64,000 bases of DNA, from assembly GCA_963823285.1 (NCBI GenBank), contig CAWGKX010000006.1, positions 87,648 to 151,647 of the forward strand. The letters are read 5' to 3'. The stretch is from an uncultured Bacteroidales bacterium (GTDB lineage: Bacteria; Bacteroidota; Bacteroidia; Bacteroidales; JAGOPY01). How positions within the stretch are numbered: position 1 is the first letter of the stretch; every line of letters starts with the position of its first letter. The translations under genes and the position numbers were made by a program. Below the pieces are notes generated by a model that saw only the letters and a list, made by a program, of their open reading frames with translations, made no database searches and had not been told where the DNA came from. Shown piece after piece: positions 20,088-43,109 of this stretch.

Positions 20088-20133
20088 ATCTTTTTATTCT
20101 CAAATTATGACAGGTTGATGGTGGGATAAGTGT

Positions 20134-20730: not shown

Positions 20731-20860
20731 AACATTTTCATTTATAATATTTTAAACTTCGAAAAAGCCAGATTGTCATAGCATGTCTAAAGATAAGTAA
20801 ATTTAATTAAGAGGATGAATGAATATTAATGGCTGATGAACAATTATTGCCTGAAAAATG

Positions 20861-20920
20861 TTAATCTGCGTTAATCCGGAGGATTTTCACCACAGATTAA
20901 CACAGATTAACGCAGATTAA
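20861..20920 (-). terminator. 16-bp perfect inverted repeat downstream of the 258-aa gene (probable operon terminator); the right arm lies within a 10-bp x3 tandem repeat
   Basis: The arm ttaatctgcgttaatc (20861-20876) is the exact reverse complement of gattaacgcagattaa (20905-20920). The right arm is part of cacagattaa cacagattaa cgcagattaa (20891-20920). The minus strand is U-rich just after the stem. Confidence 0.5.
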
Positions 20921-20939
20921 ATACAGAAAAACAAATTCT

Positions 20940-21716
20940 CTATCCAGAGATTCTTCTCCTGTAAATGAACAATGTAACCACTGTCATCAGTCCGATGCCC
21001 AGGAACAATGACCAGTTCGAAAGTGGTATCTTATGGCCGCAATTAGTGGATACACAGATGGTGCTCACGGGTTGACCAACAGAGTTTCCGTTAAAATTAT
21101 ATTCCCAGTTGAACTGGACGACGTTTTCGGTGGTTGGGGATGAATCTTGCTGACCGGTCTGATCGACAACCGTCATAACCACTCCGTCATCACCTTGCAG
21201 GTAACCTCCTGACAGGAAATCTTCCTGCAGGTCCCAGATAATGGGTGGACAGAAATTATCCACTCCTTCCAGTGCAACTGGATCTTTTACCCGGAAACAG
21301 ATATGGAATAACTTGGTCCACGTGGTAGTGGACAAAGAGATAGTCGCAGGGCCAAACACCTGGACCTGCCCGTTGAACCATTCCAGCGGGCCGGAAAGTC
21401 CGAAGAAAGACCCGCTACCGGGAGCTTGTTGCTCAACCACGGGAGGTTCCAGAACGTTATATCCATCCTGGAAGTCACCTATTGACAGGTATTCAAGGAT
21501 ATTGCCATCATAAAAGAAGCGGACATTCATCCCAAATAGCTTCTGCCCGGGAGTATCGGAAATAAATTCGACGTCCAGGCAATAGGTTTGGGTGGGACAG
21601 TCGTAAACCGGATTGGCAAAACGAACTGTCACCACAGGTAAAGCAGGTTGAGCCGCGACTTGAAATCCAGATAAAACCAGGATAAAAAGCACAGGCAGAT
21701 AGATTTTAGTTTTCAT
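20940..21716 (-). CDS. Cohesin-like domain protein with C-terminal TM/basic sorting-signal-like tail (copy A)
   Basis: The 258-aa ORF has the signal peptide MKTKIYLPVLFILVLSGFQVAAQ. Its module contains VRFFYDGNILEYLSIG, matching the xIxYDxxxLxFxG landmark of the other cohesin-like modules in the locus. The tail is IPLSNWSLFLGIGLMTVVTLFIYRRRISG. Confidence 0.6.
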   Translation of the reverse strand: MKTKIYLPVLFILVLSGFQVAAQPALPVVTVRFANPVYDCPTQTYCLDVEFISDTPGQKLFGMNVRFFYDGNILEYLSIGDFQDGYNVLEPPVVEQQAPGSGSFFGLSGPLEWFNGQVQVFGPATISLSTTTWTKLFHICFRVKDPVALEGVDNFCPPIIWDLQEDFLSGGYLQGDDGVVMTVVDQTGQQDSSPTTENVVQFNWEYNFNGNSVGQPVSTICVSTNCGHKIPLSNWSLFLGIGLMTVVTLFIYRRRISG

Positions 21717-23118
21717 AATATGCTTGTTTTATAATGATACAATAACATGACATTCTTTTGCAGGATAAATCCTGTGTTGGTTTGATAAGATTAAAGAATA
21801 TATGATCTTTCATGACCGTGGGAATTTAATTTTTGGGTACTGAAGAGAATTTACCATTGTTAAACTCCCAGGTGGTGCGATCGTTATAATTGCAGTCACC
21901 GTTGAGGTTGTAATCGCCGGTGCGATAACGGCCTGTAGTGCCATTCTGACCTTCCCAGTAGGTTCTGTCATCAAAGTTGATATCAGTAACAGAACTGGCA
22001 GGGATCACCTGCTGACCATTACCGGCATACATGGCGAAGATGCCCGGGAGGATCTCCTTCTGTCCGTAGCCTAATCCGGTGATAACATCGATATAACTCT
22101 GGACATTACGGAAGTCGAAAGTGAGGGTGTCATTGGCGATAGGCACCGGATCAGCAGACATGACAATCAGGTGATTACGATGTTCGATGACCAGGTAGTA
22201 GGAACTGTCTAAATTCAGGCTGCAGCAGTCAAAACCACCATCCACAAATTCGATATGGCCGTCGTTATGCAGTAGTGCAGCTTTGCGGCATAGATTTCCA
22301 CCTTCGGGGGCACTCCTGAGGGATACCAGCACCCAATCCACCACAGTGGCAGGATAGTTAGCAGTGCCAGGATTTGGGTTTCCATGAGAATCATATCCGA
22401 AGCCTTCAGTGCCGTTATAATTCCAGGGAGCACCAGAATAAGGCTGTCCCGGAGGAGTATATACGTTACCGGAAAAGACACTAAAGTATGTTTGACCCGG
22501 CAATATCTTCAGGTTGTTGAGACTGGTGCGCATGGGCACGGTATAAGTCTGGGTACCTCCCGGATTAATCGCAGCACCGTCAAGATATACCCAGGTTTTA
22601 ACAAACAGATCGCTGATGTTGATGATCTGCTGGCATGTCGCTGGATTACCGCAATTATCCTCAATCTCGTAGGTTCGAATGATTGTATTTCCGGATGGTA
22701 CATCACTCACCCAGATAAAGGAACCCTCATCGATACCGCAATTATCCGAGGCGGAACCACCGGCAGCGACGAAGGCTGCATAGTTGGCATACGGATCGGG
22801 TGCCGTGCATATCACAGAAAGGCCAGCAGGGCAGTTCAATGTGGGAGGCTCATTATCGCTTACAGTATAGGTGTAAGTCCAGTCGGCCGTTGTGGTTCCA
22901 TCGCAGGCGGTATAGCGGTATGTCCAGACAACCTGGCCTTCGCAAATAATCGGGTTAGGCGTTGTCACAGAGCCTACCAGAACGGAGGACACTGTTCTTC
23001 CGCATGCATCAGTAATATTAGCTGGGGCACCCGGATTCACTGCATCTACAGAGCAGGATACGGTGGATAATCCGTTAGCCGGCGGGGTAAGTCCGCTGGA
23101 GTAGATAACCGTGTAGGT
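20954..23118. repeat. Segmental duplication, copy A (partner 33866..36029)
   Basis: The two copies are collinear at a constant offset of 12912/12911 bp. They differ by a handful of substitutions and one 1-bp indel in the intergenic part. The segment covers the 258-aa gene, the intergenic spacer and the 3' 1.3 kb of the giant gene. Confidence 0.9.
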
Positions 23119-26100
23119 CTTGGTCCAGTCGGCCGTGGTGGTTCCGTTACAGGCAGTATAACGGTATCTCCAGACAATAGATCCATTGCAGGTCACCGGG
23201 TTGGGTGTTTGTTCCTTACCAATTAAGGTTGCCGAGACGGTACGTCCGCAGGCATCGGTAATATTGGCAGGGGCACCCGGATCGGTTGCATTGGACGGGC
23301 AGGAAACAGTGGCGGTGGTGTTGACCGGAGGGGTCAGACTACCGGAGTAAATAACCGTGTAGGTCTTGGTCCAGTCGGCCGTGGTGGTTCCGTCACATGC
23401 GGTATAACGGTATCTCCATACGATCGATCCATTGCAGTCCACCGGATCAGGTGATTGTTCTTTGCCAATTAAGGTTGCCGAGACGGTACGTCCGCAGGCA
23501 TCGGTAATGTTTTCCGGAGCCCCCGGATCGGTTGCATTGGACGGGCAGGAAACAGTGGCGGTGGTGTTAACCGGAGGGGTCAGACTACCGGAGTAAATAA
23601 CCGTGTAGGTCTTGGTCCAGTCGGCCGTAGTGGTTCCATCACAGGCGGTATAACGGTATCTCCAGACGATAGATCCGTTGCATGTCACCGGGTTGGGTGT
23701 TTGTTCCTTACCAATTAAGGTTGCCGAGACGGTACGTCCGCAGGCATCGGTAATGTTGGCAGGAGCGCCCGGGTCGGTTGCATTGGACGGGCAGGAAACA
23801 GTGGCAGTGGCGTTAACCGGAGGGGTTAGTCCGCCAGAGTAAATCACCGTGTAGGTCTTGGTCCAGTCGGCGGTGGTGGTTCCGTCACATGCGGTATAAC
23901 GGTATCTCCAGACGATCGATCCATTGCATGTCACCGGGTTGGGAGTTTGTTCCTCGCCGACTAAGGTTGCCGGGCCGGTAAGTCCGCAGGCATCGGTAAT
24001 GTTGGCAGGAGCGCCCGGGTCGGTTGCATCAGCCGGGCAGGAAACAGTGGCGGTGGCGTTAGCCGGAGGGGTAAGTCCGCCGGAGTAAATCACCGTGTAG
24101 GTCTTGGTCCAGTCGGCCGTAGTGGTTCCATCACAGGCGGTGTAACGGTATCTCCATACGATCGATCCGTTGCAGGTCACCGGGTTGGGTGTTTGTTCCT
24201 CGCCGACTAAGGTTGCCGAGACAGTGCGTCCGCAGGCATCGGTAATGTTGGCAGGCGCCCCTGGATCGGTTGCATTGGACGGGCAGGAAACAGTGGCGGT
24301 AGTGTTAACCGGAGGGGTAAGTCCGCCGGAGTAGATCACCGTGTAGGTCTTGGTCCAGTCGGCCGTTGTGGTTCCGTCACAGGCGGTATAACGGTATCTC
24401 CATACGATCGATCCGTTGCAGGTCACCGGGTTGGGTGTTTGTTCCTCGCCGACTAAGGTTGCCGAGACAGTGCGTCCGCAGGCATCGGTAATGTTGGCAG
24501 GCGCCCCTGGATCGGTTGCATTGGACGGGCAGGAAACAGTGGCAGTGGCGTTAGCCGGAGGGGTCAGGCCGCCAGAGTAGATCACCGTGTAGGTCTTGGT
24601 CCAGTCGGCCGTTGTGGTTCCATCACAGGCGGTATAACGGTATCTCCAGACGATCGATCCGTTGCAGGTCACCGGGTTGGGTGTTTGTTCTTCGCCAACT
24701 AAGGTTGCCGAGACAGTGCGTCCGCAGGCATCGGTAATGTTGGCAGGCACCCCAGGGTCGGTTGCATTGGACGGGCAGGAAACAGTGGCAGTGGCGTTAG
24801 CCGGAGGGGTCAGTCCGCCGGAGTAGATCACCGTGTAGGTCTTGGTCCAGTCGGCCGTTGTGGTTCCGTCACAGGCGGTATAACGGTATCTCCATACGAT
24901 CGATCCATTGCAGGTCACAGGGTTGGGTGTTTGTTCCTCACCGACTAAGGTTGCCGAAACGGTACGTCCGCAGGCATCGGTAATGTTGGCAGGAGCGCCC
25001 GGGTCGGTTGCATTGGACGGGCAGGAAACAGTGGCGGTGGTGTTAGCCGGAGGGATCAAGCCGCCGGAGTAAATAACCGTGTAGGTCTTGGTCCAGTCGG
25101 CCGTTGTGGTTCCATCACAGGCGGTATAACGGTATCTCCAGACGATCGATCCATTGCAGTCCACCGGGTTGGGTGTTTGTTCTTTCCCGACTAAGGTTGC
25201 CGGGACGGTACGTCCGCAGGCATCGGTAATATTGGCAGGAGCACCCGGATCGGATGCATTGGACGGGCAGGAAACAGTGGCGGTGGTGTTAACAGGAGGA
25301 GTAAGTCCGCCGGAGTAAATAACCGTGTAGGTCTTGGTCCAGTCGGCCGTTGTGGTTCCGTCACAGGCGGTATAACGGTATCTCCAGACAATAGATCCAT
25401 TGCAGGTCACCGGGTTGGGTGTTTGTTCCTTGCCAATTAAGGTTGCCGGGACGGTACGTCCGCAGGCATCGGTAATATTGGCAGGAGCGCCCGGGTCGGT
25501 TGCATTGGACGGGCAGGAAACAGTGGCGGTGGTGTTAGCCGGAGGGGTCAGGCCGCCGGAGTAGATAACCGTGTAGGTCTTGGTCCAGTCGGCCGTTGTG
25601 GTTCCATCACAGGCGGTATAACGGTATCTCCATAGGATCGATCCGTTGCATGTCACCGGATCAGGTGTTTGTTCCTCACCGACTAAGATTGCCGAGACGG
25701 TACGTCCGCAGGCATCGGTAATGTTTTCCGGAGTCCCCGGATCGATTGCATTGGACGGGCAGGAAACAGTGGCGGTGGCGTTAACCGGAGGGGTCAGTCC
25801 GCCGGAGTAAATAACCGTGTAGGTCTTAGTCCAGTCGGCCGTTGTGGTTCCATCACAGGCGGTATAACGGTATCTCCATACGATAGATCCATTGCAGTCC
25901 ACTGGGTTGGGTGTTTGTTCCTTACCAATTAAGGTTGCCGAGACGGTACGTCCGCAGGCATCGGTAATGTTGCCAGGAGCGCCCGGGTCGGTTGCATTGG
26001 ACGGGCAGGAAACAGTGGCGGTGGTGTTAGCCGGAGGGGTCAGTCCGCCGGAGTAGATAACCGTGTAGGTCTTGGTCCAGTCGGCCGTTGTGGTTCCATC

Positions 26101-29100
26101 ACAGGCGGTATAACGGTATCTCCATACGATCGATCCATTGCAGGTCACCGGGTTGGGAGTTTGTTCCTCACCGACTAAGATTGCCGAGACGGTACGTCCG
26201 CAGGCATCGGTAATGTTGCCAGGAGCGCCCGGGTCGGTTGCATTGGACGGGCAGGAAACAGTGGCGGTGGTGTTAACCGGCGGGGTCAGTCCGCCGGAGT
26301 ATATAACCGTGTAGGTCTTGGTCCAGTCGGCGGTGGTGGTTCCATCACAGGCGGTATAACGGTATCTCCATACGATCGATCCATTGCAGTCCACCGGATC
26401 AGGTGATTGTTCCTTACCGACTAAGGTGGCAGAGACGGTACGTCCGCAGGCATCAGTAATGTTTTCCGGAGCGCCCGGATCGGTTGCATTGGACGGGCAG
26501 GAAACAGTGGCGGTTGTGTTAACCGGAGGGGTCAGTCCGCCGGAGTAAATAACCGTGTAGGTCTTGGTCCAGTCGGCCGTGGTGATTTCGTCACAGGCGG
26601 TATAACGGTATCTCCATAGGATCGATCCGTTGCATGTCACCGGATCAGGTGTTTGTTCCTCACCGACTAAGGTTGCCGAGACAGTGCGTCCGCAGGCATC
26701 GGTAATGTTTTCCGGAGCGCCCGGATCGATTGCATTGGACGGGCAGGAAACAGTGGCGGTGGTGTTAACCGGCGGGGTAAGTCCGCCGGAGTAAATAACC
26801 GTGTAGGTCTTGGTCCAGTCGGCCGTTGTGGTTCCATCACAGGCGGTATAACGGTATCTCCATACGATAGATCCATTGCAGTCCACCGGATCAGGTGTTT
26901 GTTCCTCACCGACTAAGGTTGCCGAGACAGTGCGTCCGCAGGCATCGGTAATGTTTTCCGGAGTCCCCGGATCGGTTGCATTGGACGGGCAGGAAACAGT
27001 GGCGGTTGTGTTAACCGGAGGTGTCAGTCCGCCGGAGTAAATCACCGTGTAGGTCTTGGTCCAGTCGGCCGTTGTGATTTCGTCACAGGCGGTATAACGG
27101 TATCTCCAGACGATCAATCCATTGCAGTCCACCGGGTTGGGTGTTTGTTCTTTCCCGACTAAGGTTGCCGAGACGGTACGTCCGCAGGCATCGGTAATGT
27201 TGCCAGGAGCGCCCGGGTCGGTTGCATTGGACGGGCAGGAAACAGTGGCGGTGGTGTTAACCGGCGGGGTCAGTCCGCCGGAGTAAATAACCGTGTAGGT
27301 CTTGGTCCAGTCGGCCGTTGTGGTTCCATCACAGGCGGTATAACGGTATCTCCATACGATCAATCCATTGCAGTCCACCGGGTTGGGTGTTTGTTCCTTG
27401 CCAATTAAGGTTGCCGAGACGGTACGTCCGCAGGCATCGGTAATGTTGGCAGGAGCGCCCGGGTCGGTTGCATTGGACGGGCAGGAAACAGTGGCGGTGG
27501 TGTTAACCGGAGGGGTCAGTCCGCCGGAGTAAATAACCGTGTAGGTCTTGGTCCAGTCGGCCGTTGTGATTTCGTCACAGGCGGTATAACGGTATCTCCA
27601 GACGATCGATCCATTGCAGTCCACCGGGTTGGGTGTTTGTTCTTTCCCGACTAAGGTTGCCGAGACGGTACGTCCGCAGGCATCGGTAATGTTGCCAGGA
27701 GCGCCCGGGTCGGTTGCATTGGACGGGCAGGAAACAGTGGCGGTGGTGTTAACCGGAGGTGTCAGTCCGCCGGAGTAAATAACCGTGTAGGTCTTGGTCC
27801 AGTCGGCCGTTGTGATTTCGTCACAGGCGGTATAACGGTATCTCCAGACGATCGATCCATTGCAGTCCACCGGGTTGGGTGTTTGTTCTTTCCCGACTAA
27901 GGTTGCCGAGACGGTACGTCCGCAGGCATCGGTAATGTTGCCAGGAGCGCCCGGGTCGGTTGCATTGGACGGGCAGGAAACAGTGGCGGTGGTGTTAACC
28001 GGAGGTGTCAGTCCGCCGGAGTAAATAACCGTGTAGGTCTTGGTCCAGTCGGCCGTTGTGATTTCGTCACAGGCGGTATAACGGTATCTCCATACGATCG
28101 ATCCATTGCAGTCCACCGGATCAGGTGATTGTTCCTTACCGACTAAGGTGGCAGAGACGGTACGTCCGCAGGCATCAGTAATGTTTTCCGGAGCGCCCGG
28201 ATCGGTTGCATTGGACGGGCAGGAAACAGTGGCGGTTGTGTTAACCGGAGGTGTCAGTCCGCCGAAGTAAATCACCGTGTAGGTCTTGGTCCAGTCGGCC
28301 GTTGTGATTTCGTCACAGGCGGTATAACGGTATCTCCATACGATCGATCCGTTGCAGTTTACCGGATCAGGTGTTTGTTCCTTGCCAACTAAGGTTGCCG
28401 AGACGGTACGTCCGCAGGCATCGGTAATATTGGCAGGGGCACCCGGATCGGTTGCATTGGACGGGCAGGAAACAGTGGCGGTGGTGTTAACCGGAGGGGT
28501 CAGTCCGCCGGAGTAGATAACCGTGTAGGTCTTCGTCCAGTCGGCCGTGGTGATTCCATCACAGGCGGTATAACGGTATCTCCAGACGATCGATCCATTG
28601 CAGTCCACCGGATCAGGTGATTGTTCCTTACCGACTAAGGTGGCAGAGACGGTACGTCCGCAGGCATCGGTAATATTGGCAGGAGCACCCGGATCGGTTG
28701 CATTGGACGGGCAGGAAACAGTGGCGGTGGTGTTAACCGGAGGGGTCAGTCCGCCGGAGTAGATAACCGTGTAGGTCTTCGTCCAGTCGGCCGTGGTGAT
28801 TCCATCACAGGCGGTATAACGGTATCTCCAGACGATCGATTCATTGCAGTTCACCGGGTTGGGAGTTTGTTCCTTGCCGACTAAGGCTGCCGAGACGGTA
28901 CGTCCGCAGGCATCGGTAATGTTGGCAGGAGCACCCGGATCGGTTGCATTGGACGGGCAGGAAACAGTGGCGGTGGTGTTAACCGGAGGGGTCAGTCCGC
29001 CGGAGTATGTAATGGTATAGGTATAAGTCCATACAAATTCTAGGTTGGCACAATCCTTATAAGTGTAAATCCAGGTATAGGTTCCATTGCAGCCGGCATA

Positions 29101-32100
29101 GCTTCCGCCATTTGTTGGAGTCGGGACAGAAAGGATATTGCCGCATATATCTTTGACCACAGGCAGGGTAATAGGTGCTGTGGCATTGGCCAGACACTGA
29201 ACGGTACCGCCATTGGTTGAAACCGGTCCGCCGGACTCGGCAGGTGGAGTGGTATGAGTGAGGTTGAAAACCTGTGTGCATGTGTTGGGATTACTGCAGG
29301 AATCCGTTACCTGGTAAGTCCGCGTGACAGTTAATGCACATGTCCCTTCGACTGTCTGTCCTAAATAACTAAAGGTATAGATATCACCACAATTATCAGT
29401 GGCTGTTCCACCTGCAGCGCGAAATGCTCCTATGTTTGCATAAGGAGCTGGTAAGTCTGCAACGCACTGATAGCTTGAACTGCCGGGAGGACAGGTAATC
29501 GAAGGAGCTATTGAATCCTTCACCGTAATCGTCTGTGAGCAATCTGCGTGATTTCCGCTTTGGTCAGTGGCTCGGTAAGTTCGCGTAATAGTGAATTTAT
29601 TTGGGCACGTCTTATTTGTGATAACGTCTCCCTGCCATGTAATAAGAATATCAGCAGGTAGGGTACAATCGTCAGTCGCGGTCACAGAAGAAGTATTTTC
29701 CGGAGGTACTGCTGAAGCACAGGCAACAGTCAAATTCGCCGGGCATGTAATATTTGGCGCAGAGTTAGGTGGCAGCGTACTGAATGAAATATCATCTAAG
29801 CCAAAATCATTTCCTCCCGCAATGGTTTGAAGATCAACGATTCTTATTACTGCAGAAGTGTTGCTGCCTGAATTCCAAACAGAATAGAATCTATTCCAGA
29901 CGAAAGGTCCTGCAGTTGTGGTGGCTCCTGGAGGCAATTGAAAAGGATATCCCAGCAGAATGCCATTTATACTGAATTGCAAAAATGCGTACGTATTATT
30001 TGCCTGGTTTAAACTCATTGCCCAGGCGTTAAAATAGTAATTGGTGTTTGGTGTGACCGTAATATTCTCTTGCCATACTGTTATACCGGGAGAGACATTG
30101 CCATTTATAGCCATATAAAGGCCAGTGCCCGGGTTTGTGTGATCAGTACCGAAAAAATTGGTATGTTGTGCATTAGAATTAGGTGTAACTGCATAAAGTC
30201 CTTCAGGCACCAGATCTGCCGGAGCATAAATATATGCAGATGTAAAACCTGTATTTCCCGCCGTAAAGTTTCCATTCGTGACAAGTTCACCGCCAACATT
30301 AACGTCTTGTGTATTTGAGCATCCGCCCGCAGTTGTGACGGTAACAGTATAAATACCTGCCTGATGCGCAATAATGGATTGTGTGGTCTCTCCTGTATTC
30401 CATAAGTAAGAGGCAAATGCGGGATCGACCGTCAATTGAATATCGACATTTTGTATACAATTATTTGAATTTATTGTAAACGAGGGCGCTGTACCTCCCG
30501 ACACTGTCACAGTCACTGTTCCGCAGGCTGAATTCAGGTTACATGGACTGCCGGATTCATAGCGGCCCCAATATTGTGTAGTACCAGCTGGTGTTACTTT
30601 TAAATTATCTCCTGTCCCAACGAGAGTACCGCCGCAACTTCCGGTATACCATTTAATCGTTTGTGCGCCTCCTCCTGCGCCTCCGCCACCCCCGGTCAAA
30701 GAAAGAATAGAAAAGCCCCCGGTACAGATCGAAGCAGGACTGGCAGCAGCCGTTGGAGCGCCAATTGCAGCGCATGCTGCACCGATAGCAAAATCACCGA
30801 AACCGGATAGTCCTGTAGCTGTTGTAGATGTTGCAAGTGGGTTAGTTGTTGTTGGTGAAGTCCAGGCGGAAGAAAAGAATCTTTTAACTAAAAAGTTCGC
30901 AGTGATGTTCTTAGCTGAGGGATCTATATCAACCGGAGTTACCCAGCCAATAAAAGTAAATGTAGCAGTGTATGTTCCTATTGCAAGAGCGCCTCCTGCA
31001 GTTAAAGTCCAGTAACGGTTAACATCATTGGCAGGATCAATGCCTGAAGTATTAATATTAGGATGTTCAGTTTTAGTGTTTTTGGCTGTTAAAGTTCCGG
31101 CAACTGTTACATTTAGTGCCGTAATGGCGATAGGAGTGTAGCTAAGCGAATCTCCAATGTAAAACGTCTTGGATTGGCCGGCTCCGGTCCCTAATGTCCA
31201 CTCTAAATTTCCATAAACATACAAGCCGGCTCCTGCTCCAACCACACTTGCAGCTGTGCCAAGAGTCAGTTTATTTGCTCCTGTCGTGATTTTTCCGCTT
31301 GTGAAGGTGAGTATACCTGTAACAGTTGCATTCACCCCATTTAGCTTAACTCCCCCGGTATTATCGATGGTTAAATTAGTAAATGTCGTCGCACTTGAAC
31401 CGCTTATAGTCTGTGCTCCTCCATTGAAAACTATAGTACCTGTGTTTGCGGTAAATGTGCCATTGTTTGTCCAGTCACCGACTAAACTAAGTGTATTTAT
31501 CGAACCAAGCAATATCCCGCCTGTGTTTATAGTAAGCTTACTCGCTGTTGAAGCAGCATTGACGGTTATTGTATGCCCGCTGAGAATGGTAATGGAAATG
31601 GCGGCATTGGTAGGTACAACGGACGAAGTCACCCATATGACATTATCGGTTGAGATTTCCCAAGTATTTGCAGTGTTCCAGTTACCTGTGATCCTTGAAC
31701 GAAAATAATTGGCAAAAGGTTCACCGATCTGGAAATCACTGAAACTCGTAAGCCCCGTAGCTTGTGTAGTCGTCGCCGTTCTTGTCCCGGTAGTTGTTGA
31801 GTTCCATACGGAAGAAGCGAACCTTTGAATGATGAAGTTCGCAGTATTAGCTCCGGCATCCAGATCACCGGGGTTAATAAAAGTAAACGTGGCGTTATAA
31901 TTCGATAAAACAAGCCCTCCACCGGAGGCTAATGTCCAGTAACGATTAACTGATCTTATTGGTGCAATGTTGGAGCTGCCAATGTTCGGATGATCGCCGG
32001 CAGTTGTGCGCGCCATTGTAGTTCCGGGAGTGGTCACACTATTGAAAGTAATGGAAACCGGTGTATAAGCCGTCTCATCACCGATTGCAAAATTTTTGGT

Positions 32101-33465
32101 TGTTGTACCTGCTGGAATTGTCCATTCTAAATTTCCAATTACCCATCCTGTACCTCCACCGACAACAGTTGCCGATGAACCAAGCGTTAACTTAAAGAAT
32201 GGACCTGAAGTTATATTCCCACTGGTGAATGTAAGCGTGCCGTTCACAATTTCGCCAAATGAATCTACCAATGAGACCCCGGTGGCATTGTTGACTATCA
32301 AATTATTAAAGGCTGTCACTGTGAGGCCTGTAATAAACTGCTGAGCAGTACCATTGAAAGTCACCGTTCCGGTCCCGGCTGTGAAAGTCCCGTCATTTCC
32401 AAAATCACCGCCCAGGGTCAGATTAAAATTACCCGTATTTAAACTCCCGTTGACTATTTCGAGATTGACTGCGGCATTAAATGTTTTTGCCCCATTTAGC
32501 GTGATAACACCGGTATTTGTAATGATCACCCCACCGGTTGCCGCAAAAGGTGTTATCCATTCCAGCCCTGCCGTACGCGAACTGGCTGTATTGTATTGCA
32601 AAGTTGCTGCCGCGCCGTAAGTCGGTGCTACAGAAGCAGTAGCAGTTCCTTCCATGGAGAGGATACCTCCCACAGTCACTCCGGTTGTAGTTTTTATATT
32701 CGAACCGGGACCACCGGAAAGTGTTAGATTAGTATACGTTGATGGTTTGACAGTTTGTGCCCCGGTTCTGCTATAATTGACCGTTGCCCCGGTTCCGTTG
32801 AAAGTTGTTGTAAATACTCCGCTGTTCCCGGTCGTTCCGAATGGCGTTGCACCACCAAGCACTAAGTTGGGATTGAAATTTCCTAAAGTCAAAGTTGCTA
32901 TACAAGCTGCATTGCTCGCTGTAACGGGTGTAATTGTCCCGTTTACAGTTACCATTCCGCTATTTTCTATGAACGAGGAATTATCTGAAAATGTGCCGGA
33001 TCTGCTGCTTGTAATGGTCAAATTGCCTGTAATAGTAAAATTCAGGATAGTTGAGGTCATTATAGTTGTTCTGGTACCCGTCGGTGTAACAGCAGTGCCA
33101 ACATTTGCTGATGCACAGGCTAATGTCCCGGCACCTTCTATTAAACAAGCAGTATTTCCTCCTGCTGCACTGTTTAAAGTCACGGCATTTGTAACTGTAA
33201 CCGTGATTCCGCTGTTAATATTTAGAGTTGCAATAGCCCCGTTAAAAGTAATTGAGAGACAGGTAGTAGTCACATCGCCTGTCAGGGTAATTCCGTTCGG
33301 AATTACCACATCATCGCCTGAACCGGGAACACCGGTTGGTGTCCAGGTACTTCCGGTATTCCAGTTTCCTGTAAATGCAGTTTTAGTAATTGCATGCGTC
33401 AATGAAACTGTAAATAATAAAATTAGTACAGTCAGTGCTGCTTTTAACAAAGAACTCGTCTTCAT
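21826..33465 (-). CDS. Giant secreted adhesin-like protein (about 3879 aa): beta-helix-like head, CBM-like domain, HYR-like Cys domains, 25 x 82-aa repeats, conserved C-terminal module with dockerin-like end
   Basis: One uninterrupted ORF runs 21826..33549. I prefer Met29 (ATG at 33463-33465), which gives the signal peptide MKTSSLLKAALTVLILLFTVSLTHA. No T9SS C-terminal domain is recognisable at the C-terminus (...GDYNLNGDCNYNDRTTWEFNNGKFSSVPKN). Confidence 0.9.
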   Translation of the reverse strand: MKTSSLLKAALTVLILLFTVSLTHAITKTAFTGNWNTGSTWTPTGVPGSGDDVVIPNGITLTGDVTTTCLSITFNGAIATLNINSGITVTVTNAVTLNSAAGGNTACLIEGAGTLACASANVGTAVTPTGTRTTIMTSTILNFTITGNLTITSSRSGTFSDNSSFIENSGMVTVNGTITPVTASNAACIATLTLGNFNPNLVLGGATPFGTTGNSGVFTTTFNGTGATVNYSRTGAQTVKPSTYTNLTLSGGPGSNIKTTTGVTVGGILSMEGTATASVAPTYGAAATLQYNTASSRTAGLEWITPFAATGGVIITNTGVITLNGAKTFNAAVNLEIVNGSLNTGNFNLTLGGDFGNDGTFTAGTGTVTFNGTAQQFITGLTVTAFNNLIVNNATGVSLVDSFGEIVNGTLTFTSGNITSGPFFKLTLGSSATVVGGGTGWVIGNLEWTIPAGTTTKNFAIGDETAYTPVSITFNSVTTPGTTMARTTAGDHPNIGSSNIAPIRSVNRYWTLASGGGLVLSNYNATFTFINPGDLDAGANTANFIIQRFASSVWNSTTTGTRTATTTQATGLTSFSDFQIGEPFANYFRSRITGNWNTANTWEISTDNVIWVTSSVVPTNAAISITILSGHTITVNAASTASKLTINTGGILLGSINTLSLVGDWTNNGTFTANTGTIVFNGGAQTISGSSATTFTNLTIDNTGGVKLNGVNATVTGILTFTSGKITTGANKLTLGTAASVVGAGAGLYVYGNLEWTLGTGAGQSKTFYIGDSLSYTPIAITALNVTVAGTLTAKNTKTEHPNINTSGIDPANDVNRYWTLTAGGALAIGTYTATFTFIGWVTPVDIDPSAKNITANFLVKRFFSSAWTSPTTTNPLATSTTATGLSGFGDFAIGAACAAIGAPTAAASPASICTGGFSILSLTGGGGGAGGGAQTIKWYTGSCGGTLVGTGDNLKVTPAGTTQYWGRYESGSPCNLNSACGTVTVTVSGGTAPSFTINSNNCIQNVDIQLTVDPAFASYLWNTGETTQSIIAHQAGIYTVTVTTAGGCSNTQDVNVGGELVTNGNFTAGNTGFTSAYIYAPADLVPEGLYAVTPNSNAQHTNFFGTDHTNPGTGLYMAINGNVSPGITVWQENITVTPNTNYYFNAWAMSLNQANNTYAFLQFSINGILLGYPFQLPPGATTTAGPFVWNRFYSVWNSGSNTSAVIRIVDLQTIAGGNDFGLDDISFSTLPPNSAPNITCPANLTVACASAVPPENTSSVTATDDCTLPADILITWQGDVITNKTCPNKFTITRTYRATDQSGNHADCSQTITVKDSIAPSITCPPGSSSYQCVADLPAPYANIGAFRAAGGTATDNCGDIYTFSYLGQTVEGTCALTVTRTYQVTDSCSNPNTCTQVFNLTHTTPPAESGGPVSTNGGTVQCLANATAPITLPVVKDICGNILSVPTPTNGGSYAGCNGTYTWIYTYKDCANLEFVWTYTYTITYSGGLTPPVNTTATVSCPSNATDPGAPANITDACGRTVSAALVGKEQTPNPVNCNESIVWRYRYTACDGITTADWTKTYTVIYSGGLTPPVNTTATVSCPSNATDPGAPANITDACGRTVSATLVGKEQSPDPVDCNGSIVWRYRYTACDGITTADWTKTYTVIYSGGLTPPVNTTATVSCPSNATDPGAPANITDACGRTVSATLVGKEQTPDPVNCNGSIVWRYRYTACDEITTADWTKTYTVIYFGGLTPPVNTTATVSCPSNATDPGAPENITDACGRTVSATLVGKEQSPDPVDCNGSIVWRYRYTACDEITTADWTKTYTVIYSGGLTPPVNTTATVSCPSNATDPGAPGNITDACGRTVSATLVGKEQTPNPVDCNGSIVWRYRYTACDEITTADWTKTYTVIYSGGLTPPVNTTATVSCPSNATDPGAPGNITDACGRTVSATLVGKEQTPNPVDCNGSIVWRYRYTACDEITTADWTKTYTVIYSGGLTPPVNTTATVSCPSNATDPGAPANITDACGRTVSATLIGKEQTPNPVDCNGLIVWRYRYTACDGTTTADWTKTYTVIYSGGLTPPVNTTATVSCPSNATDPGAPGNITDACGRTVSATLVGKEQTPNPVDCNGLIVWRYRYTACDEITTADWTKTYTVIYSGGLTPPVNTTATVSCPSNATDPGTPENITDACGRTVSATLVGEEQTPDPVDCNGSIVWRYRYTACDGTTTADWTKTYTVIYSGGLTPPVNTTATVSCPSNAIDPGAPENITDACGRTVSATLVGEEQTPDPVTCNGSILWRYRYTACDEITTADWTKTYTVIYSGGLTPPVNTTATVSCPSNATDPGAPENITDACGRTVSATLVGKEQSPDPVDCNGSIVWRYRYTACDGTTTADWTKTYTVIYSGGLTPPVNTTATVSCPSNATDPGAPGNITDACGRTVSAILVGEEQTPNPVTCNGSIVWRYRYTACDGTTTADWTKTYTVIYSGGLTPPANTTATVSCPSNATDPGAPGNITDACGRTVSATLIGKEQTPNPVDCNGSIVWRYRYTACDGTTTADWTKTYTVIYSGGLTPPVNATATVSCPSNAIDPGTPENITDACGRTVSAILVGEEQTPDPVTCNGSILWRYRYTACDGTTTADWTKTYTVIYSGGLTPPANTTATVSCPSNATDPGAPANITDACGRTVPATLIGKEQTPNPVTCNGSIVWRYRYTACDGTTTADWTKTYTVIYSGGLTPPVNTTATVSCPSNASDPGAPANITDACGRTVPATLVGKEQTPNPVDCNGSIVWRYRYTACDGTTTADWTKTYTVIYSGGLIPPANTTATVSCPSNATDPGAPANITDACGRTVSATLVGEEQTPNPVTCNGSIVWRYRYTACDGTTTADWTKTYTVIYSGGLTPPANATATVSCPSNATDPGVPANITDACGRTVSATLVGEEQTPNPVTCNGSIVWRYRYTACDGTTTADWTKTYTVIYSGGLTPPANATATVSCPSNATDPGAPANITDACGRTVSATLVGEEQTPNPVTCNGSIVWRYRYTACDGTTTADWTKTYTVIYSGGLTPPVNTTATVSCPSNATDPGAPANITDACGRTVSATLVGEEQTPNPVTCNGSIVWRYRYTACDGTTTADWTKTYTVIYSGGLTPPANATATVSCPADATDPGAPANITDACGLTGPATLVGEEQTPNPVTCNGSIVWRYRYTACDGTTTADWTKTYTVIYSGGLTPPVNATATVSCPSNATDPGAPANITDACGRTVSATLIGKEQTPNPVTCNGSIVWRYRYTACDGTTTADWTKTYTVIYSGSLTPPVNTTATVSCPSNATDPGAPENITDACGRTVSATLIGKEQSPDPVDCNGSIVWRYRYTACDGTTTADWTKTYTVIYSGSLTPPVNTTATVSCPSNATDPGAPANITDACGRTVSATLIGKEQTPNPVTCNGSIVWRYRYTACNGTTTADWTKTYTVIYSSGLTPPANGLSTVSCSVDAVNPGAPANITDACGRTVSSVLVGSVTTPNPIICEGQVVWTYRYTACDGTTTADWTYTYTVSDNEPPTLNCPAGLSVICTAPDPYANYAAFVAAGGSASDNCGIDEGSFIWVSDVPSGNTIIRTYEIEDNCGNPATCQQIINISDLFVKTWVYLDGAAINPGGTQTYTVPMRTSLNNLKILPGQTYFSVFSGNVYTPPGQPYSGAPWNYNGTEGFGYDSHGNPNPGTANYPATVVDWVLVSLRSAPEGGNLCRKAALLHNDGHIEFVDGGFDCCSLNLDSSYYLVIEHRNHLIVMSADPVPIANDTLTFDFRNVQSYIDVITGLGYGQKEILPGIFAMYAGNGQQVIPASSVTDINFDDRTYWEGQNGTTGRYRTGDYNLNGDCNYNDRTTWEFNNGKFSSVPKN
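22873..29022 (-). repeat. Coding tandem array: 25 units of 246 bp (82 aa)
   Basis: The landmark ggagta[ag]ataaccgtgtaggtcttggtccagtcggc recurs at 23098, 23344, 23590 ... 29002, and (29002-23098)/246 = 24. Translation gives 24 near-identical units of the form TYTVIYSGGLTPPVNTTATVSCPSNATDPGAPANITDACGRTVSATLVGKEQTPNPVTCNGSIVWRYRYTACDGTTTADWTK, plus one divergent C-terminal unit. Confidence 0.95.
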
Positions 33466-33785
33466 AAAAATAAATCTTTTGGTATTTTTTTCAATGGCTC
33501 TTGTTTTGACGCTGCCATCAACCTGGGGAAAAGAGTAAATATTTTTCATGATTTTCTTTTTGGATTTAATACTTGGATCTTTTTTTATTGCAGGGGGGAA
33601 AATTCATTGAAACTATTAATTACGGGGGTGATAATGAATCACTGATTGAAGCTTCAAAATGGACATAATGATTCAAAAACCAGTAAGTGCTGAAAATCAT
33701 AATATTAGATAAAAAAAATTGTAATTATAAATTGGTTAATGACTTAGACTAAGGAAAGGTACAAAATATTTTAATACACAGCACA

Positions 33786-33830
33786 AAAAATATAAAAAAA
33801 AGCGCAAAAACATGAAATGTTAATGCGCTT
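33786..33830 (-). terminator. Rho-independent terminator after the copy-B 258-aa gene
   Basis: The stem aagcgca (33800-33806) pairs with tgcgctt (33824-33830). An inner stem pairs aacat with atgtt. On the minus strand a U-rich tract follows (plus-strand A-run 33786-33800). Confidence 0.75.
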
Positions 33831-33851
33831 CAGATAATAAATCTTAATGAT

Positions 33852-34628
33852 TTATGAACTCATCCTTCTCCTGTAAATGAACAATGTAACCACTGTCATC
33901 AGTCCGAGGCCCAGGAACAATGACCAGTTCGAAAGTGGTATCTTATGGCCGCAATTAGTGGACACACAGATGGTGCTCACGGGTTGACCAACAGAGTTTC
34001 CGTTAAAATTATATTCCCAGTTGAACTGGACGACGTTTTCGGTGGTTGGGGATGAATCTTGCTGACCGGTCTGATCGACAACCGTCATAACCACTCCGTC
34101 ATCACCTTGCAGGTAACCTCCTGACAGGAAATCTTCCTGCAGGTCCCAGATAATGGGTGGACAGAAATTATCCACTCCTTCCAGTGCAACTGGATCTTTT
34201 ACCCGGAAACAGATATGGAATAACTTGGTCCACGTGGTAGTGGACAAAGAGATAGTCGCAGGGCCAAACACCTGGACCTGCCCGTTGAACCATTCCAGCG
34301 GGCCGGAAAGGCCGAAGAAAGACCCGCTACCGGGAGCTTGTTGCTCAACCACGGGAGGTTCCAGAACGTTATATCCATCCTGGAAGTCACCTATTGACAG
34401 GTATTCAAGGATATTACCATCATAAAAGAAGCGGGCATTCATCCCAAATAGCTTCTGCCCGGGAGTATCGGAAATAAATTCGACGTCCAGGCAATAGGTT
34501 TGGGTGGGACAGTCGTAAACCGGGTTGGCAAAACGAACTGTCACCACAGGTAAAGCAGGTTGAGCCGCGACTTGAAATCCTGATAAAACCAGGATAAAAA
34601 GCACAGGCAGATAGATTTTAGTTTTCAT
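33852..34628 (-). CDS. Cohesin-like domain protein with C-terminal TM/basic tail (copy B)
   Basis: The 258-aa ORF differs from copy A at only a few residues: V65A, LGIGL to LGLGL, and the C-terminus RRRMSS versus RRRISG. Confidence 0.6.
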   Translation of the reverse strand: MKTKIYLPVLFILVLSGFQVAAQPALPVVTVRFANPVYDCPTQTYCLDVEFISDTPGQKLFGMNARFFYDGNILEYLSIGDFQDGYNVLEPPVVEQQAPGSGSFFGLSGPLEWFNGQVQVFGPATISLSTTTWTKLFHICFRVKDPVALEGVDNFCPPIIWDLQEDFLSGGYLQGDDGVVMTVVDQTGQQDSSPTTENVVQFNWEYNFNGNSVGQPVSTICVSTNCGHKIPLSNWSLFLGLGLMTVVTLFIYRRRMSS

Positions 34629-36029
34629 AATATGCTTATTTTATAATGATACAATAAATTGACATTCTTTGCAGGATAAATCCTGTGTTGGTTTGATAAG
34701 ATTAAAGAATATATGATCTTTCATGACCGTGGGAATTTAATTTTTGGGTACTGAAGAGAATTTACCATTGTTAAACTCCCAGGTGGTGCGGTCGTTATAA
34801 TTGCAGTCGCCGTTGAGGTTGTAATCGCCGGTGCGATAACGGCCTGTAGTGCCATTCTGACCTTCCCAGTAGGTTCTGTCATCAAAGTTGATATCAATAA
34901 CAGAACTGGCAGGGATCACCTGCTGACCATTACCGGCATACATGGCGAAGATGCCCGGGAGGATCTCCTTCTGTCCGTAGCCTAATCCGGTGATAACATC
35001 GATATAACTCTGGACATTACGGAAGTCGAAAGTGAGGGTGTCATTGGCGATAGGCACCGGATCAGCAGACATGACAATCAGGTGATTACGATGTTCGATG
35101 ACCAGGTAGTAGGAACTGTCGAAATTCAGGCTGCAGCAATCAAAACCACCATCCACAAATTCCACATGGCCGTCGTTATGCAGTAGTGCAGCTTTGCGGC
35201 ATAGATTTCCGCCTTCCGGGGCACTCCTGAGGGATACCAGCACCCAATCCACCACAGTGGCAGGATAGTTAGCAGTGCCAGGATTTGGGTTTCCATGAGA
35301 ATCATATCCGACGCCTTCAGTGCCGTTATAATTCCAGGGAGCACCAGAATAAGGCTGTCCCGGAGGAGTATATACGTTACCGGAAAAGACACTAAAGTAT
35401 GTTTGACCCGGCAATATCTTCAGGTTGTTGAGACTGGTGCGCATGGGCACGGTATAAGTCTGGGTACCTCCCGGATTAATCGCAGCACCGTCAAGATATA
35501 CCCAGGTTTTAACAAACAGATCGCTGATGGTGATGATCTGCTGGCATGTCACAGGATTACCGCAATTATCCTCAATCTCGTAGGTTCGTATGATTGTATT
35601 TCCGGATGGTACATCACTCACCCAGATAAAGGAACCCTCATCGATACCGCAATTATCCGAGGCGGAACCACCGGCAGCGACGAAGGCTGCATAGTTGGCA
35701 TACGGATCAGGGGCCGTGCATATCACAGAAAGGCTATCAGGGCAGTTCAATGTAGGAGGCTCATTATCGCTTACAGTATAGGTGTAAGTCCAGTCGGCCG
35801 TTGTGGTTCCATCGCAGGCGGTATAGCGGTATGTCCAGACAACCTGGCCTTCGCAAATAATCGGGTTAGGCGTTATCTGAGAGCCTACCAGAACTGGGGA
35901 CGCTGTTCTTCCGCATGCATCAGTAATATTAGCTGGGGCACCCGGATTCACTGCATCTACAGAGCAGGATACGGTGGATAATCCGTTAGCCGGCGGGGTA
36001 AGTCCGCTGGAGTAGATAACCGTGTAGGT
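33866..36029. repeat. Segmental duplication, copy B (partner 20954..23118)
   Basis: See copy A. Confidence 0.9.
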
Positions 36030-39000
36030 CTTGGTCCAGTCGGCCGTGGTGGTTCCGTTACAGGCTGTATAACGGTACCTCCAGACAATTGATCCGTTGC
36101 ATGTCACCGGGTTGGGAGTTTGTTCCTTGCCAATTAAGGTTGCCGAGACGGTACGTCCGCAGGCATCGGTAATGTTGGCAGGAGCGCCCGGATCGGTTGC
36201 ATTGGACGGGCAGGAAACAGTGGCGGTGGTGTTAGCCGGCGGGGTCAGTCCGCCGGAGTAGATAACCGTGTAGGTCTTGGTCCAGTCGGCCGTTGTGGTT
36301 CCGTTACAGGCGGTATAACGGTATCTCCATACGATCGATCCATTGCAGGTCACCGGGTTCGGTGTTTGTTCTTTACCAATTAAGGTTGCCGAGACGGTAC
36401 GTCCGCAGGCATCGGTAATGTTGGCAGGAGCGCCCGGATCGGTTGCATTGGACGGGCAGGAAACAGTGGCGGTGGTGTTAACAGGAGGAGTAAGTCCGCC
36501 GGAGTAAATAACCGTGTAGGTCTTGGTCCAGTCGGCCGTTGTGGTTCCGTTACAGGCAGTATAACGGTATCTCCAGACGATAGATCCGTTACAGGTCACC
36601 GGGTTGGGTGTTTGTTCCTTGCCGACTAAGGTTGCCGAGACGGTACGTCCGCAGGCATCGGTAATGTTGGCAGGAGCGCCCGGATCGGTTGCATTGGACG
36701 GGCAGGAAACAGTGGCGGTGGTGTTGACCGGAGGTGTAAGTCCACCAGAGTAGATAACCGTGTAGGTCTTGGTCCAGTCGGCCGTTGTGGTTCCGTCACA
36801 GGAAGTATAACGGTATCTCCAGACAATCGATCCGTTGCATGTCACCGGGTTGGGTGTTTGTTCCTTGCCAATTAAGGTTGCCGAGACGGTACGTCCGCAG
36901 GCATCGGTAATGTTGGCAGGAGCGCCCGGGTCGGTTGCATTGGACGGGCAGGAAACAGTGGCGGTAGCGTTAGCCGGCGGGGTCAATGCGCCGGAGTAAA
37001 TAACCGTGTAGGTGTAAGTCCAGACATACTCGAGGTTGGCACAATCCTTATACGTGTAGGTATATGTTCTGGAACCACTGCAGGTCAGTGGGTCCGGACT
37101 ATCAACGATCACTGGTGTAGGAGCCGGGAGAATATTTCCGCAAACATCTTTGACCACGGGAAGTGCCGGTGCAGCCGTCAGGCACTCAACGGTGCTGGAA
37201 GTTGCAACTGGTCCGCCAAACTGAGTTGGAGCCGTAGTATGCATAATTGTAATTGTCTGAGTACAGGTTTGCTGGTGAAGGCAAGTATCCTTTATTCCAT
37301 AAGTACGGGTTATGACTTCAGGACATGTATTACCGTCTGAATCGTCACTTATCCAGGCAAATGAGGATATCAGGATGCCGCTTAAATCATCCGATGCTGA
37401 ACCACCGGCAGCGACAAAGGCAGCATAGTCCGGATAAACATCTGGAACTGTGCATTGGGCCGTTAGTGGGCCAGGGCAGTTCATAACTGGTGGCGCATTG
37501 TCAGGGTAGAAAGTTTCTCCTTTAACAGAACTATATCCACATTCATTTTGTGCCCTGACTCTAACATTAAATGAAGTGACATTGTTGGGAACTGATAATA
37601 TGATTTTTCTGAGGAATTGGCCGGTTCCGCTCTGCTGCGTTCCAAGAACAACCGGGCTGTCCCATTCCCAAAAATAATTTTGCGCACCGAGTACTACTGA
37701 AGCTTCAATAAGGACATCTGTGTTCCCGGATATTAAACTGTCCGGAAAACAGATTCCATTGGGCATTGTTATATCCGCCGGCGGATCGGGAGGAAGAGTC
37801 GTGGTTTGAAATAGGGGAGAAGTCCAGATATTAGTTCCACAAGCATTTACTGTGGTTATTGATACGGTAATAGGTGTGCTTCCTATGAATAACCGGACAA
37901 ATCTTGTTCCCTGGCCTGAAATTATTTGCCAGCCGTCCGAAACTACCCAATTATATGAAATGGCCCCCTGTACATCATTCACGCTGAAGTCAGCAATCGA
38001 ACCGATGCAGGCAGGGTTAGGACCTGTAATTTCAATTGGTGGACCCGGAGGGCCAATAGAGTACAGTATAAATTTATCAGAATTTATGATTACATCACAA
38101 TCAACAGTTGAAATTTTAACAAGAGTAATAGTTGTACTATCGGTAATAGGTATGGTTTTGGTATCCGAAATATTTGGGCTGTTCACAATTTGCGACTGCT
38201 CAGTCCCTCCGTTAATCTTGTAATAATAAGTCCAGGGAAAAATATTCCCCAGGTAATTAACTGTAAATGTAATGTTGACAGGTGTATGTTCTGGAGTGCC
38301 GCAAACATCGGGCGTTACCGTGAGCGATCCGGTTGGAAGGACTATCGAATTGCCGTTAAAACTATCAGATGCAACATAGCAGTTTGTATTATTTAAATTT
38401 TCTTCACTGGCAGCAGAAACTAACCTGAAAATTTTATTTCCTATCGAACCAATAGCAAGATCTATATAAGCATTAGCAAAATCAGGTATAGGGCTTCCTA
38501 TATTCACCCAGTTTGATGTGTTAATATCGGCTTCCTGCCACTGAAAAACATAAGGAATATCAGGAGGGATGCTCCCGGAAGTAATCGTGCCTTGAAGCCT
38601 GATTAGTCCGGTTGTGCAATAATCAGTGGAAATTCTCTCATACCCGATCGTAAACGGAATAAATGGCCGGAATGTGATATCATCAATAGCTAAGTCGTTG
38701 CCACACCCGCCATCTCCATTATTTCTTAATATGATAAATATGCTATCCTGATTTTGAGGCACGATGAAGATTATAGAAGTTGAATTCCAGGTTAGAGTTG
38801 TTGTTGCATTTACAACACCTGTATTAGTTTGCGCGAGTAATTTAGCGCCGTTACATGCAGTCCCGCCAACTGGTAAAAGAGAATTGGCTTCATCATCACC
38901 CGGGTTTTTATCCCATATTTCATAACGGATATTAATTGGAAGACCGCTGCCTCCGCATGCGGTCGGCTTAAGTACATTAGCATAATATGATTTGTATTCA

Positions 39001-43041: not shown

Positions 43042-43109
43042 AGCTTTTTTATTTATAATTATATTGATTAATTCGAATATCTGTTAAAGGTAATATTATT
43101 TTTTAATGC

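Follow-up and report, generated by a model that had tools for sequence, protein, structure and literature searches.

Tandem genes for putative giant adhesins in a Bacteroidales bacterium, each paired with a small gene for a protein of predicted cohesin-like fold

A 64,000-nucleotide (nt) stretch of DNA from an uncultured Bacteroidales bacterium (contig CAWGKX010000006.1 of assembly GCA_963823285.1, positions 87,648 to 151,647 of the forward strand; hereafter, the window) carries two tandem copies of a two-gene module. Each copy consists of a giant putative adhesin gene and, directly downstream, a gene for a protein of 258 amino acids (aa), which we name cohX and refer to as the anchor; the tail of the giant and the anchor have predicted folds like those of the two halves of a cohesin-dockerin joint. 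In the 5' to 3' direction of the minus strand, giant G2 comes first, followed by a 108-nt spacer and a 258-aa gene; a hairpin and ~300 nt then lead to giant G1, a 109-nt spacer, the other 258-aa gene and a strong hairpin, beyond which lie exbB and exbD. G1 encodes 3879 aa (21826-33465; open reading frame (ORF) list, translation and Pfam) and G2 encodes 1689 aa (34737-39806; ORF list and Pfam), both lengths being measured from the ATG that precedes the signal peptide. Anchor copy A lies at 20940-21716 (translation, AlphaFold model and Foldseek), separated from G1 by the spacer at 21717-21825, and copy B, which matches a cohX hidden Markov model (HMM) at E 1.5e-129, lies at 33852-34628.

The two copies are collinear and nearly identical. 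Self-BLASTN paired 20950-24112 with 33862-37023 (3163 nt, one gap, 96.3% identity), and the sequence outside 20950 and 24112 was unrelated between the copies. Binned at 100 nt, identity was 95-100% from 20954 to ~23160; along the shared 246-bp repeats it was 89-96% as far as ~24110/37023, where similarity collapsed. The offset between the copies is 12912 and becomes 12911 past a 1-bp indel at 21756/34667, which sits in the giant-anchor spacer (109 nt in copy A, 108 nt in copy B). Identity reaches 98-99% in a part made up of the 258-aa gene, the spacer and the final 261 codons of each giant. The two 258-aa genes are 14 of 777 nt and 4 residues apart, the 783 nt of those final codons show 10 differences, and the repeat-proximal 1.5 kb of the duplicate is 6.4% divergent. 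On the opposite (plus) strand, two ORFs of equal length (228 aa; 22384-23070 and 35295-35981) run antisense to the duplicated tail region; they are most likely a side effect of the duplication rather than genes.

Each copy is followed by a minus-strand hairpin that is likely to be a terminator. The hairpin after anchor A (20860-20911) has a 19-bp stem, a folding energy of -33.9 kcal/mol and a z-score of -6.5 relative to shuffled sequences. The one after anchor B (33799-33831), upstream of the G1 promoter region, is GC-rich, runs into a U-run and has a z-score of -3.4. A consensus terminator scan flagged neither, and RNA folding found both. Hairpin A is itself built of three tandem 10-nt units, TTAATCTGCG, TTAATCTGTG and again TTAATCTGTG, paired with their complement (20880-20925, minus strand).

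The giants share their stalk and tail and differ in their heads. G1 comprises, in order, a signal peptide, a duplicated Thr/Gly-rich head, an Ig_7 domain, an HYR-like cap, ~25 HYR_4C repeats, a second HYR-like cap and the X-dockerin-like tail described below; G2 comprises a signal peptide, a Cys/Trp-rich head, PKD_6 domains, an HYR-like cap, ~5 HYR_4C repeats, a cap and the same kind of tail. The 246-bp repeat unit, which encodes the 82-aa HYR_4C domain, was counted by Tandem Repeats Finder at 24.1 copies in G1 (23074-29007, also covered by Pfam) and 4.2 copies in G2 (35985-37013, at whose upstream edge the G1/G2 similarity ends), both on the minus strand; Pfam matched HYR_4C 28 times in G1 and 6 times in G2. 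BLASTP detected no relationship between the two heads; that of G1 contains an internal duplication (49% identity over 286 aa, E 6e-40). None of the type IX sorting-domain models in Pfam and NCBIfam (TIGR04183, TIGR04131, NF033708, Por_Secre_tail and CHU_C) matched either giant, and neighbouring proteins do match; we accordingly rejected the giants as type IX cargo of a kind that the available models recognize.

An earlier note on this DNA, made from the letters alone, had described this layout, and most of it stood. Self-BLASTN and binned identity reproduced the collinear near-identical segments and the shift in offset from 12912 to 12911 at the 1-bp indel, and the protein lengths agree with those it gave. 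Both sites for which it had claimed a terminator of each copy's own fold into strong hairpins, its 25 and 5 stalk repeats are close to the measured counts, and its unrelated heads and internal duplication in G1 agree with BLASTP. Its claim of a jelly-roll or carbohydrate-binding-module (CBM)-like domain in both heads found no support: by BLASTP the heads have only a terminal GND..DDI.F motif in common and Pfam returned no match at E<=10, and we dropped a CBM-like head domain as a candidate.

The shared tail spans the last 261 aa of each giant (21829-22611 in G1, 34740-35522 in G2, minus strand). Its AlphaFold model (mean predicted local distance difference test score (pLDDT) 88.4, predicted template modelling score (pTM) 0.89) shows a beta-sandwich followed by helices at residues 213-222 and 242-251, which corresponds to a C-terminal two-helix dockerin on a preceding beta-sandwich X module. 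In Foldseek, the six best matches in the PDB were all type II X-module-dockerin dyads (4u3s_B, 4wi0_B, 4fl4, 2b59_B; probability 0.99-1.0, 166-173 columns), and the probability dropped to 0.47 at the seventh match. The last 55 residues hold a duplicated segment, N[FY][DN]DRT[YT]WE..NG, and the calcium loop ahead of its second copy, the second loop of the tail (D233-x-N235-x-N237-G-D239-x-N241-x-x-D244), is canonical, with its positions 85-100% conserved across 54 homologues. As modelled, then, the giant tail resembles an X-module-dockerin dyad.

The anchor is made of a signal peptide (cleavage at about A22/Q23), a domain of predicted cohesin fold at residues ~27-215, a Cys-containing linker, the motif IPLSNW, a transmembrane (TM) helix and a terminal RRR. 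Its AlphaFold model, computed from a 40-sequence alignment, reached a mean pLDDT of 90.7 and has the beta-sandwich jelly-roll of a cohesin, superimposable on solved cohesins: ranks 1-23 of the Foldseek search against the PDB were all cohesins (probability 1.0, E 2e-5 to 1e-3, target-normalised template modelling score (TM-score) 0.42-0.60). The database search yielded 259 homologues, all unnamed or 'hypothetical', and the family is compact, with 383 members in an exhaustive HMM search of 1.84 billion cluster representatives. The 258-aa protein is predicted to fold like a cohesin, and in sequence it forms a separate family. The earlier note had called the tail dockerin-like and the small protein cohesin-like from the letters alone, and both descriptions agree with the models and with their uniform sets of top fold matches (six of six and 23 of 23).

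Genes 42-51% identical to the cohX of the window were also present on short contigs of metagenome-assembled genomes (MAGs) labelled Thermoanaerobaculia (L024, L056) and Omnitrophota (L066), which is more likely binning contamination than true spread beyond Bacteroidota.

We examined how the two genes are linked elsewhere, sampling loci from both sides. Among cohX-sampled loci (one genome per GTDB species), every assessable small anchor has a tail gene no more than 700 bp upstream of its start: these are 7 Bacteroidales anchors ending in a TM helix and RRR, and 15 short ones (~337 aa, type IX-like C-terminus) from Saprospiraceae and Lewinellaceae. Among tail-sampled loci (metagenome contigs with 61 distinct tails, 55 of them assessable), 34 tails have the start of a cohX ORF no more than 200 bp downstream, a number that rises to 41 when the limit is set at 600 bp. 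The anchor likewise follows the tail gene in L001, L003 and L005, three relatives syntenic with the window. An adhesin gene with a C-terminal X-dockerin-like domain directly before a gene for a single-cohesin-like anchor is therefore the arrangement in the window, with its 109-nt and 108-nt spacers, for all 22 assessable small anchors and for 41 of the 55 tails. The earlier note had proposed this search as a check on a strict pairing of giant and anchor; strictness held for single-domain anchors (22 of 22 assessable loci) and gave way for the cohX domains that stand at the start of large multi-domain proteins, which mostly do not lie right after a tail gene.

Bodies and heads vary around this conserved pair. 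The tail has 259 homologues, found in Bacteroidales, Prolixibacteraceae, Lewinellaceae and Saprospiraceae at the C-termini of HYR, cadherin-like, immunoglobulin (Ig) and other bodies. Giants at other loci, some of them syntenic, have tails 56-68% identical to those of the window and no head in common with G1 or G2, in keeping with the idea, already put forward in the earlier note, of a conserved tail and partner combined with exchangeable bodies.

The two domains also recur outside the two-gene module. Some proteins carry 2-7 cohX copies, and six have an N-terminal cohX together with a C-terminal tail; those of Saprospiraceae include L054 3765-16646, L049 1-12221, L137 3-8429 and L064 196-3339. 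In L054, L049 and L137, genes follow one another as A(tail), B(cohX...tail), C(cohX...), a chain-like order that suggests head-to-tail chaining of giant proteins. Occurrence of cohX in multi-domain proteins, its union with the tail in one polypeptide and these gene chains are the behaviour expected of a generic connector pair.

Several loci depart from the simple order in other ways. A locus present in roughly twelve metagenomes from digesters and sludge (L147-L158) has up to three tandem tail genes and no cohX in the sequence recovered. Two unrelated contigs carry related genes of ~510-530 aa with similar C-termini directly after the tail gene (L101 2360-3961, L144 1519-3045); in L144 this insert separates the tail gene from its anchor, now 2.8 kb apart, and the gene may be a mobile insertion. 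A Bacteroidales MAG contig that begins within the first of them (L008 3-1621) has two tandem TM-RRR anchor genes before exbB.

The C-termini of the anchors fall into alternative types. Across 40 homologues, Bacteroidales anchors end in IP[LV]SNW, a conserved hydrophobic helix and YRRR, with P230, W234, L238, I240, G241, L242, M243 and R254 each at least 90% conserved; the TM helix is unusually conserved, and the whole has the tripartite layout of a short motif, a hydrophobic helix and a basic cluster at the extreme C-terminus. In a regular-expression scan of ~1 Mb of loci (not whole genomes, and with no search for a sorting enzyme), the IP[LV]SNW-TM-RRR motif occurred on cohX proteins only, in 28 of 28 cases. 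Curated IPTL-, PEP- and other CTERM models gave no match to this C-terminus, and the LPXTG_anchor model fits only its TM and basic part, marginally, at 12-16 bits against a cutoff of 15.9. We rejected an LPXTG sortase signal with attachment to a Gram-positive wall on the grounds that the motif is IP[LV]SNW and the host belongs to a Bacteroidota lineage with PorU, PorP and GldJ. In Saprospiraceae, the anchor C-terminus is a type IX type-A sorting domain, with Por_Secre_tail at 42.6 bits in a 415-aa class and three examples of the 337-aa class giving TIGR04183 scores of 28.3, 21.8 and no match (cutoff 23). No sorting domain was found on the Bacteroidales partners.

Upstream of G2, four minus-strand genes (40579-52158) look like a small scaffoldin system. 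A 756-aa protein (43110-45380) has two Pfam Cohesin domains (E 2.6e-25) and a divergent copy of the tail (HMM E 1.3e-27, residues 555-761 of the stop-to-stop ORF 43113-45395), which makes it the third tail bearer in the window and possibly an adaptor scaffoldin. Directly downstream of it lies the gene for an 820-aa protein (40579-43041) with a type IX type-A sorting domain (TIGR04183 30.1 bits, cutoff 23). The N-terminus of the 820-aa protein aligned with cohX in hhalign (probability 75%, E 2.6e-5, 68 columns including the signal peptide), a weak result from a three-sequence profile, and a homologue search with it gave one match; as a lead only, these two genes may be a third tail/anchor pair. 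The remaining two proteins, of 564 and 1647 aa (45427-52158), each combine a canonical Cohesin domain with a type IX type-A sorting domain (TIGR04183 32.4 and 36.2 bits), with an Ig domain in the 564-aa protein and PKD in the 1647-aa protein, and are predicted to be surface-displayed cohesins that could serve as alternative docking sites.

A type IX cluster follows at 55786-62264; the start of G2 is no more than 16 kb away, and the closest cohesin gene ~3.6 kb. It comprises GldJ (55786-57258, minus strand; NCBIfam 460 bits), a PorP/SprF family protein (T9SS_PorP_fam; 57290-58321, minus strand; 232 bits) and the sortase PorU (58422-62264, plus strand; 1357 bits), and these genes imply that the host has a type IX system. 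Between this cluster and the cohesin genes, a Mur ligase is split into a 204-aa ORF with the N-terminal and middle domains and a 157-aa ORF with the C-terminal domain, ~240 nt apart (54410-55740), which could reflect a frameshift, a pseudogene or a sequencing error.

At the other end of the module, exbB-exbD (19680-20730) stand directly after the TM-RRR anchor in the window, as they do in 10 of 15 distinct loci. With the pair following the anchor in that fraction of loci only, we rejected ExbB-ExbD as an unproven functional partner, and the adjacency looks like synteny rather than a functional requirement. Relatives have a 271-292-aa gene of unknown family between exbD and a Mur-ligase-like gene, and this gene is absent from the window (junction 19670/19680).

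Taken together, the predicted folds, the calcium-loop motif, gene linkage in two orders, the variety of bodies and the different ends of the anchors lead us to consider it probable that each module is an adhesin and its anchor, joined by a plug and socket of the cohesin-dockerin type. The giant would be exported by its Sec signal and would consist of a variable binding head, a rod of disulfide-containing, Ig-like HYR_4C repeats and a C-terminal X-module-dockerin dyad, and the downstream gene would supply a single-cohesin protein whose C-terminus attaches it to the cell envelope. With calcium in place, the two dockerin helices at the end of the giant would then bind the cohesin of the adjacent anchor, so that the giant would be tethered non-covalently to the cell. 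As a self-contained connector, tail and anchor could be combined with any head and any stalk length. The earlier note had likewise proposed that the two proteins act together as dockerin-like tail and cohesin-like anchor; the predicted folds and the linkage bear this out as far as they go, and it is from them that we infer the binding itself.

Gram-positive cellulosome systems are the main known setting of cohesin-dockerin joints, which are prized as connectors for their great strength and their specificity. The closest known analogue of the present pair appears to be cttA-scaE of Ruminococcus flavefaciens, in which cttA, encoding an adhesin with an X-dockerin, adjoins scaE, encoding a single cohesin with a C-terminal sortase signal, and in which the CttA-ScaE complex carries the mechanical load of cell adhesion (PMC4081043, PMC4266597). 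As there, an adhesin with N-terminal binding modules and a C-terminal X-dockerin-like domain is encoded directly upstream of a small single-cohesin-like gene, the anchor ends in a motif, a hydrophobic helix and a basic tail like that of ScaE, and gene order, domain order and predicted folds match. The differences are considerable: the host here is a diderm member of Bacteroidota with a type IX system and not a Gram-positive Firmicute, the anchor lacks LPXTG and has in its place either IP[LV]SNW, TM and RRR or a type IX sorting domain, the giant that forms the cargo has HYR repeats and no recognisable CBMs, and the modules are invisible to the Pfam Cohesin and Dockerin models and to PDB sequence searches.

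Type II pairs offer a second comparison. In CipA-SdbA of Acetivibrio (Clostridium) thermocellum and ScaA-ScaB of A. cellulolyticus (PDB 2B59, 4FL4, 4U3S), which match the tail best in structure, a large protein likewise ends in an X module packed on a two-helix dockerin, and the dockerin docks to the cohesin of a cell-anchored protein. Their anchors, unlike those in the window, attach to a Gram-positive wall through SLH domains; at ~200 aa, the X module of the window is roughly twice as long as theirs, the first calcium loop is degenerate and the cargo is not an enzyme scaffoldin.

Two further likenesses lie closer to home. The canonical Cohesin (PF00963) proteins with type IX domains in the window share the cohesin fold predicted for cohX, predicted surface display and the same locus, and one Cohesin protein even bears a divergent tail; cohX differs from them in being unrecognised by the Pfam model and in forming its separate family. 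In Bacteroidota, proteins with type IX type-B sorting domains are accompanied by cognate PorP/SprF-like genes, as with SprB/SprF of Flavobacterium johnsoniae, where a giant repetitive surface adhesin is likewise followed by a dedicated small partner gene, needed in SprB/SprF for surface attachment. Here, unlike in SprB/SprF, the partner has a predicted cohesin fold with a TM or type-A anchor and is no PorP beta-barrel, and the giants have no sorting domain. Full-text literature searches on cohesin-dockerin topics and on the IPTL-CTERM sorting signal turned up no description of the pair, which looks like an undescribed, Gram-negative version of the cellulosome plug-and-socket joint.

Several observations weigh against this reading. 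At the sequence level, the tail has no Pfam match at E<=10, Dockerin_1 (PF00404) included, and its first calcium loop (D208/D210/N212/D214/D215) is degenerate; cohX has no Pfam match even at E<=10 and none in NCBIfam; PDB profile searches found nothing with the tail alignment and nothing at E<=10 with the cohX alignment; and hhalign found no relationship (probability 2.5%) between the cohX profile and the 564-aa neighbour with its canonical Cohesin domain. At the level of structure, the target-normalised TM-scores of the fold matches are moderate. Linkage is incomplete, in that 11 of 55 tail genes have no detectable cohX in the 1.2-9.9 kb available downstream; several of these are tandem tail-gene arrays whose members may share one anchor, an arrangement seen in L146 and L159, where two tail genes precede a single anchor. 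Four canonical Cohesin domains within 20 kb could be the true partners of the tails. Topology is a further difficulty: a signal peptide with a C-terminal TM helix and RRR looks like, and by sequence predicts, an inner-membrane protein with its cohesin facing the periplasm, which, together with giants that have no type IX sorting domain, leaves a role as surface adhesin unexplained. Possible routes to the surface are an anchor terminus that acts as a new sorting signal, in Saprospiraceae a sorting domain of the partner that acts in trans, or nearby surface cohesins serving as final docks.

Those canonical cohesins are the basis of one alternative, which we regard as unlikely: that the tails dock on the 564-aa, 1647-aa and 756-aa proteins nearby and that the 258-aa protein is, for example, a periplasmic holding receptor or assembly factor before export. 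Two of the four Pfam Cohesin domains are on type-A sorting-domain proteins with predicted surface display, and both the inner-membrane topology predicted for the 258-aa protein and the missing sorting domain of the giants would be accounted for; yet the linkage is to cohX, at 22 of 22 loci in two orders, Saprospiraceae cohX anchors themselves bear a type IX sorting domain, and the 756-aa protein's own divergent tail suggests a separate specificity. Gene logic alone would also fit a secretion or attachment pair like type-B sorting domains with PorP/SprF, with a conserved C-terminal domain on the giant followed by a dedicated small gene whose product mainly exports the giant, possibly in trans, all the more so as PorU, PorP and GldJ lie in the window and Saprospiraceae partners carry a type-A sorting domain that the giants lack. 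We think this distinctly unlikely: the small protein has a predicted cohesin fold and not a PorP-like beta-barrel, the giants match no sorting-domain model of type A, B or C, the Bacteroidales partners carry none at all and, to our knowledge, type IX co-transport of protein complexes is not established. That the adjacency is mere operon organisation without direct interaction, and the fold matches a generic beta-sandwich resemblance, would agree with the missing sequence-level tie to cohesin or dockerin families and with TM-scores of only 0.5-0.6. Generic resemblance should, however, have given mixed beta-sandwiches where we found cohesins in 23 of 23 and X-dockerin dyads in 6 of 6 top matches; the tail also has its canonical conserved calcium loop and duplicated helix segment, and both halves of a known interacting pair recur together, even within one polypeptide and in gene chains, so that this explanation appears very unlikely.

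The duplication could, finally, be an artefact of assembly, in which two strain variants were joined in tandem or the repeats led to a misjoin. The source is apparently metagenome-assembled, long near-identical repeats are error-prone in assembly, and the exact database match to the small protein is on one 421 kb contig only. Against this, the copies are 1.3-1.8% divergent and differ by an indel, and each is joined to a distinct, complete, in-frame head and has its own terminator and unrelated flanks; given this divergence, the intact distinct ORFs and the separate terminators, an artefact is hardly credible. An independent metagenome contig, L142, speaks against it as well, carrying, in this order, a tail gene (tail 56% identical to that of the window), a TM-RRR anchor and a gene that begins with sequence 70% identical to the G1 head.

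If the copies are genuine, their near-identity may have either of two origins. Syntenic relatives (L001, L003 and L005) have a single module, in the order giant, anchor, exbB, exbD, ..., Mur ligase, thiS, thiF and AFOR, and in these positional counterparts the tail is 64-68% identical and the head is not shared. The 98-99% identity may reflect a recent duplication followed by head replacement, or it may be due to gene conversion between older tandem paralogues, extending from the last codons of the anchor into the repeat array. Conversion of the 3' halves is made plausible by L142, which points to tandem modules in a lineage with only 56% tail identity; since this contig is short and its second module lies out of sight, it is a hint only. 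Whichever applies, the tandem duplication itself is ordinary paralogue biology.

A bolder version of the plug-and-socket reading is that Bacteroidota possess a sequence-cryptic cohesin/X-dockerin connector of their own in the diderm envelope, in which either the cohesin partner lends its type IX sorting domain in trans, taking giants without one through the type IX system as part of a complex, or IP[LV]SNW-TM-RRR is a new sorting signal functionally interchangeable with the type IX domain, and which also daisy-chains giants into an adhesin fibre or 'adhesosome'. In this full form we consider the idea unlikely. All members seen here are annotated as 'hypothetical' or merely as HYR-domain-containing, and in Bacteroidales and Saprospiraceae alike the pair apparently serves to attach giant adhesins with swappable heads to the cell, possibly in chains. 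If the binding is true, it would raise the question of how very large proteins without a type IX signal reach the surface, it would offer protein engineering a new orthogonal connector pair, and it would give a function to a recurrent, unannotated gene pair of wastewater, sediment and digester Bacteroidota.

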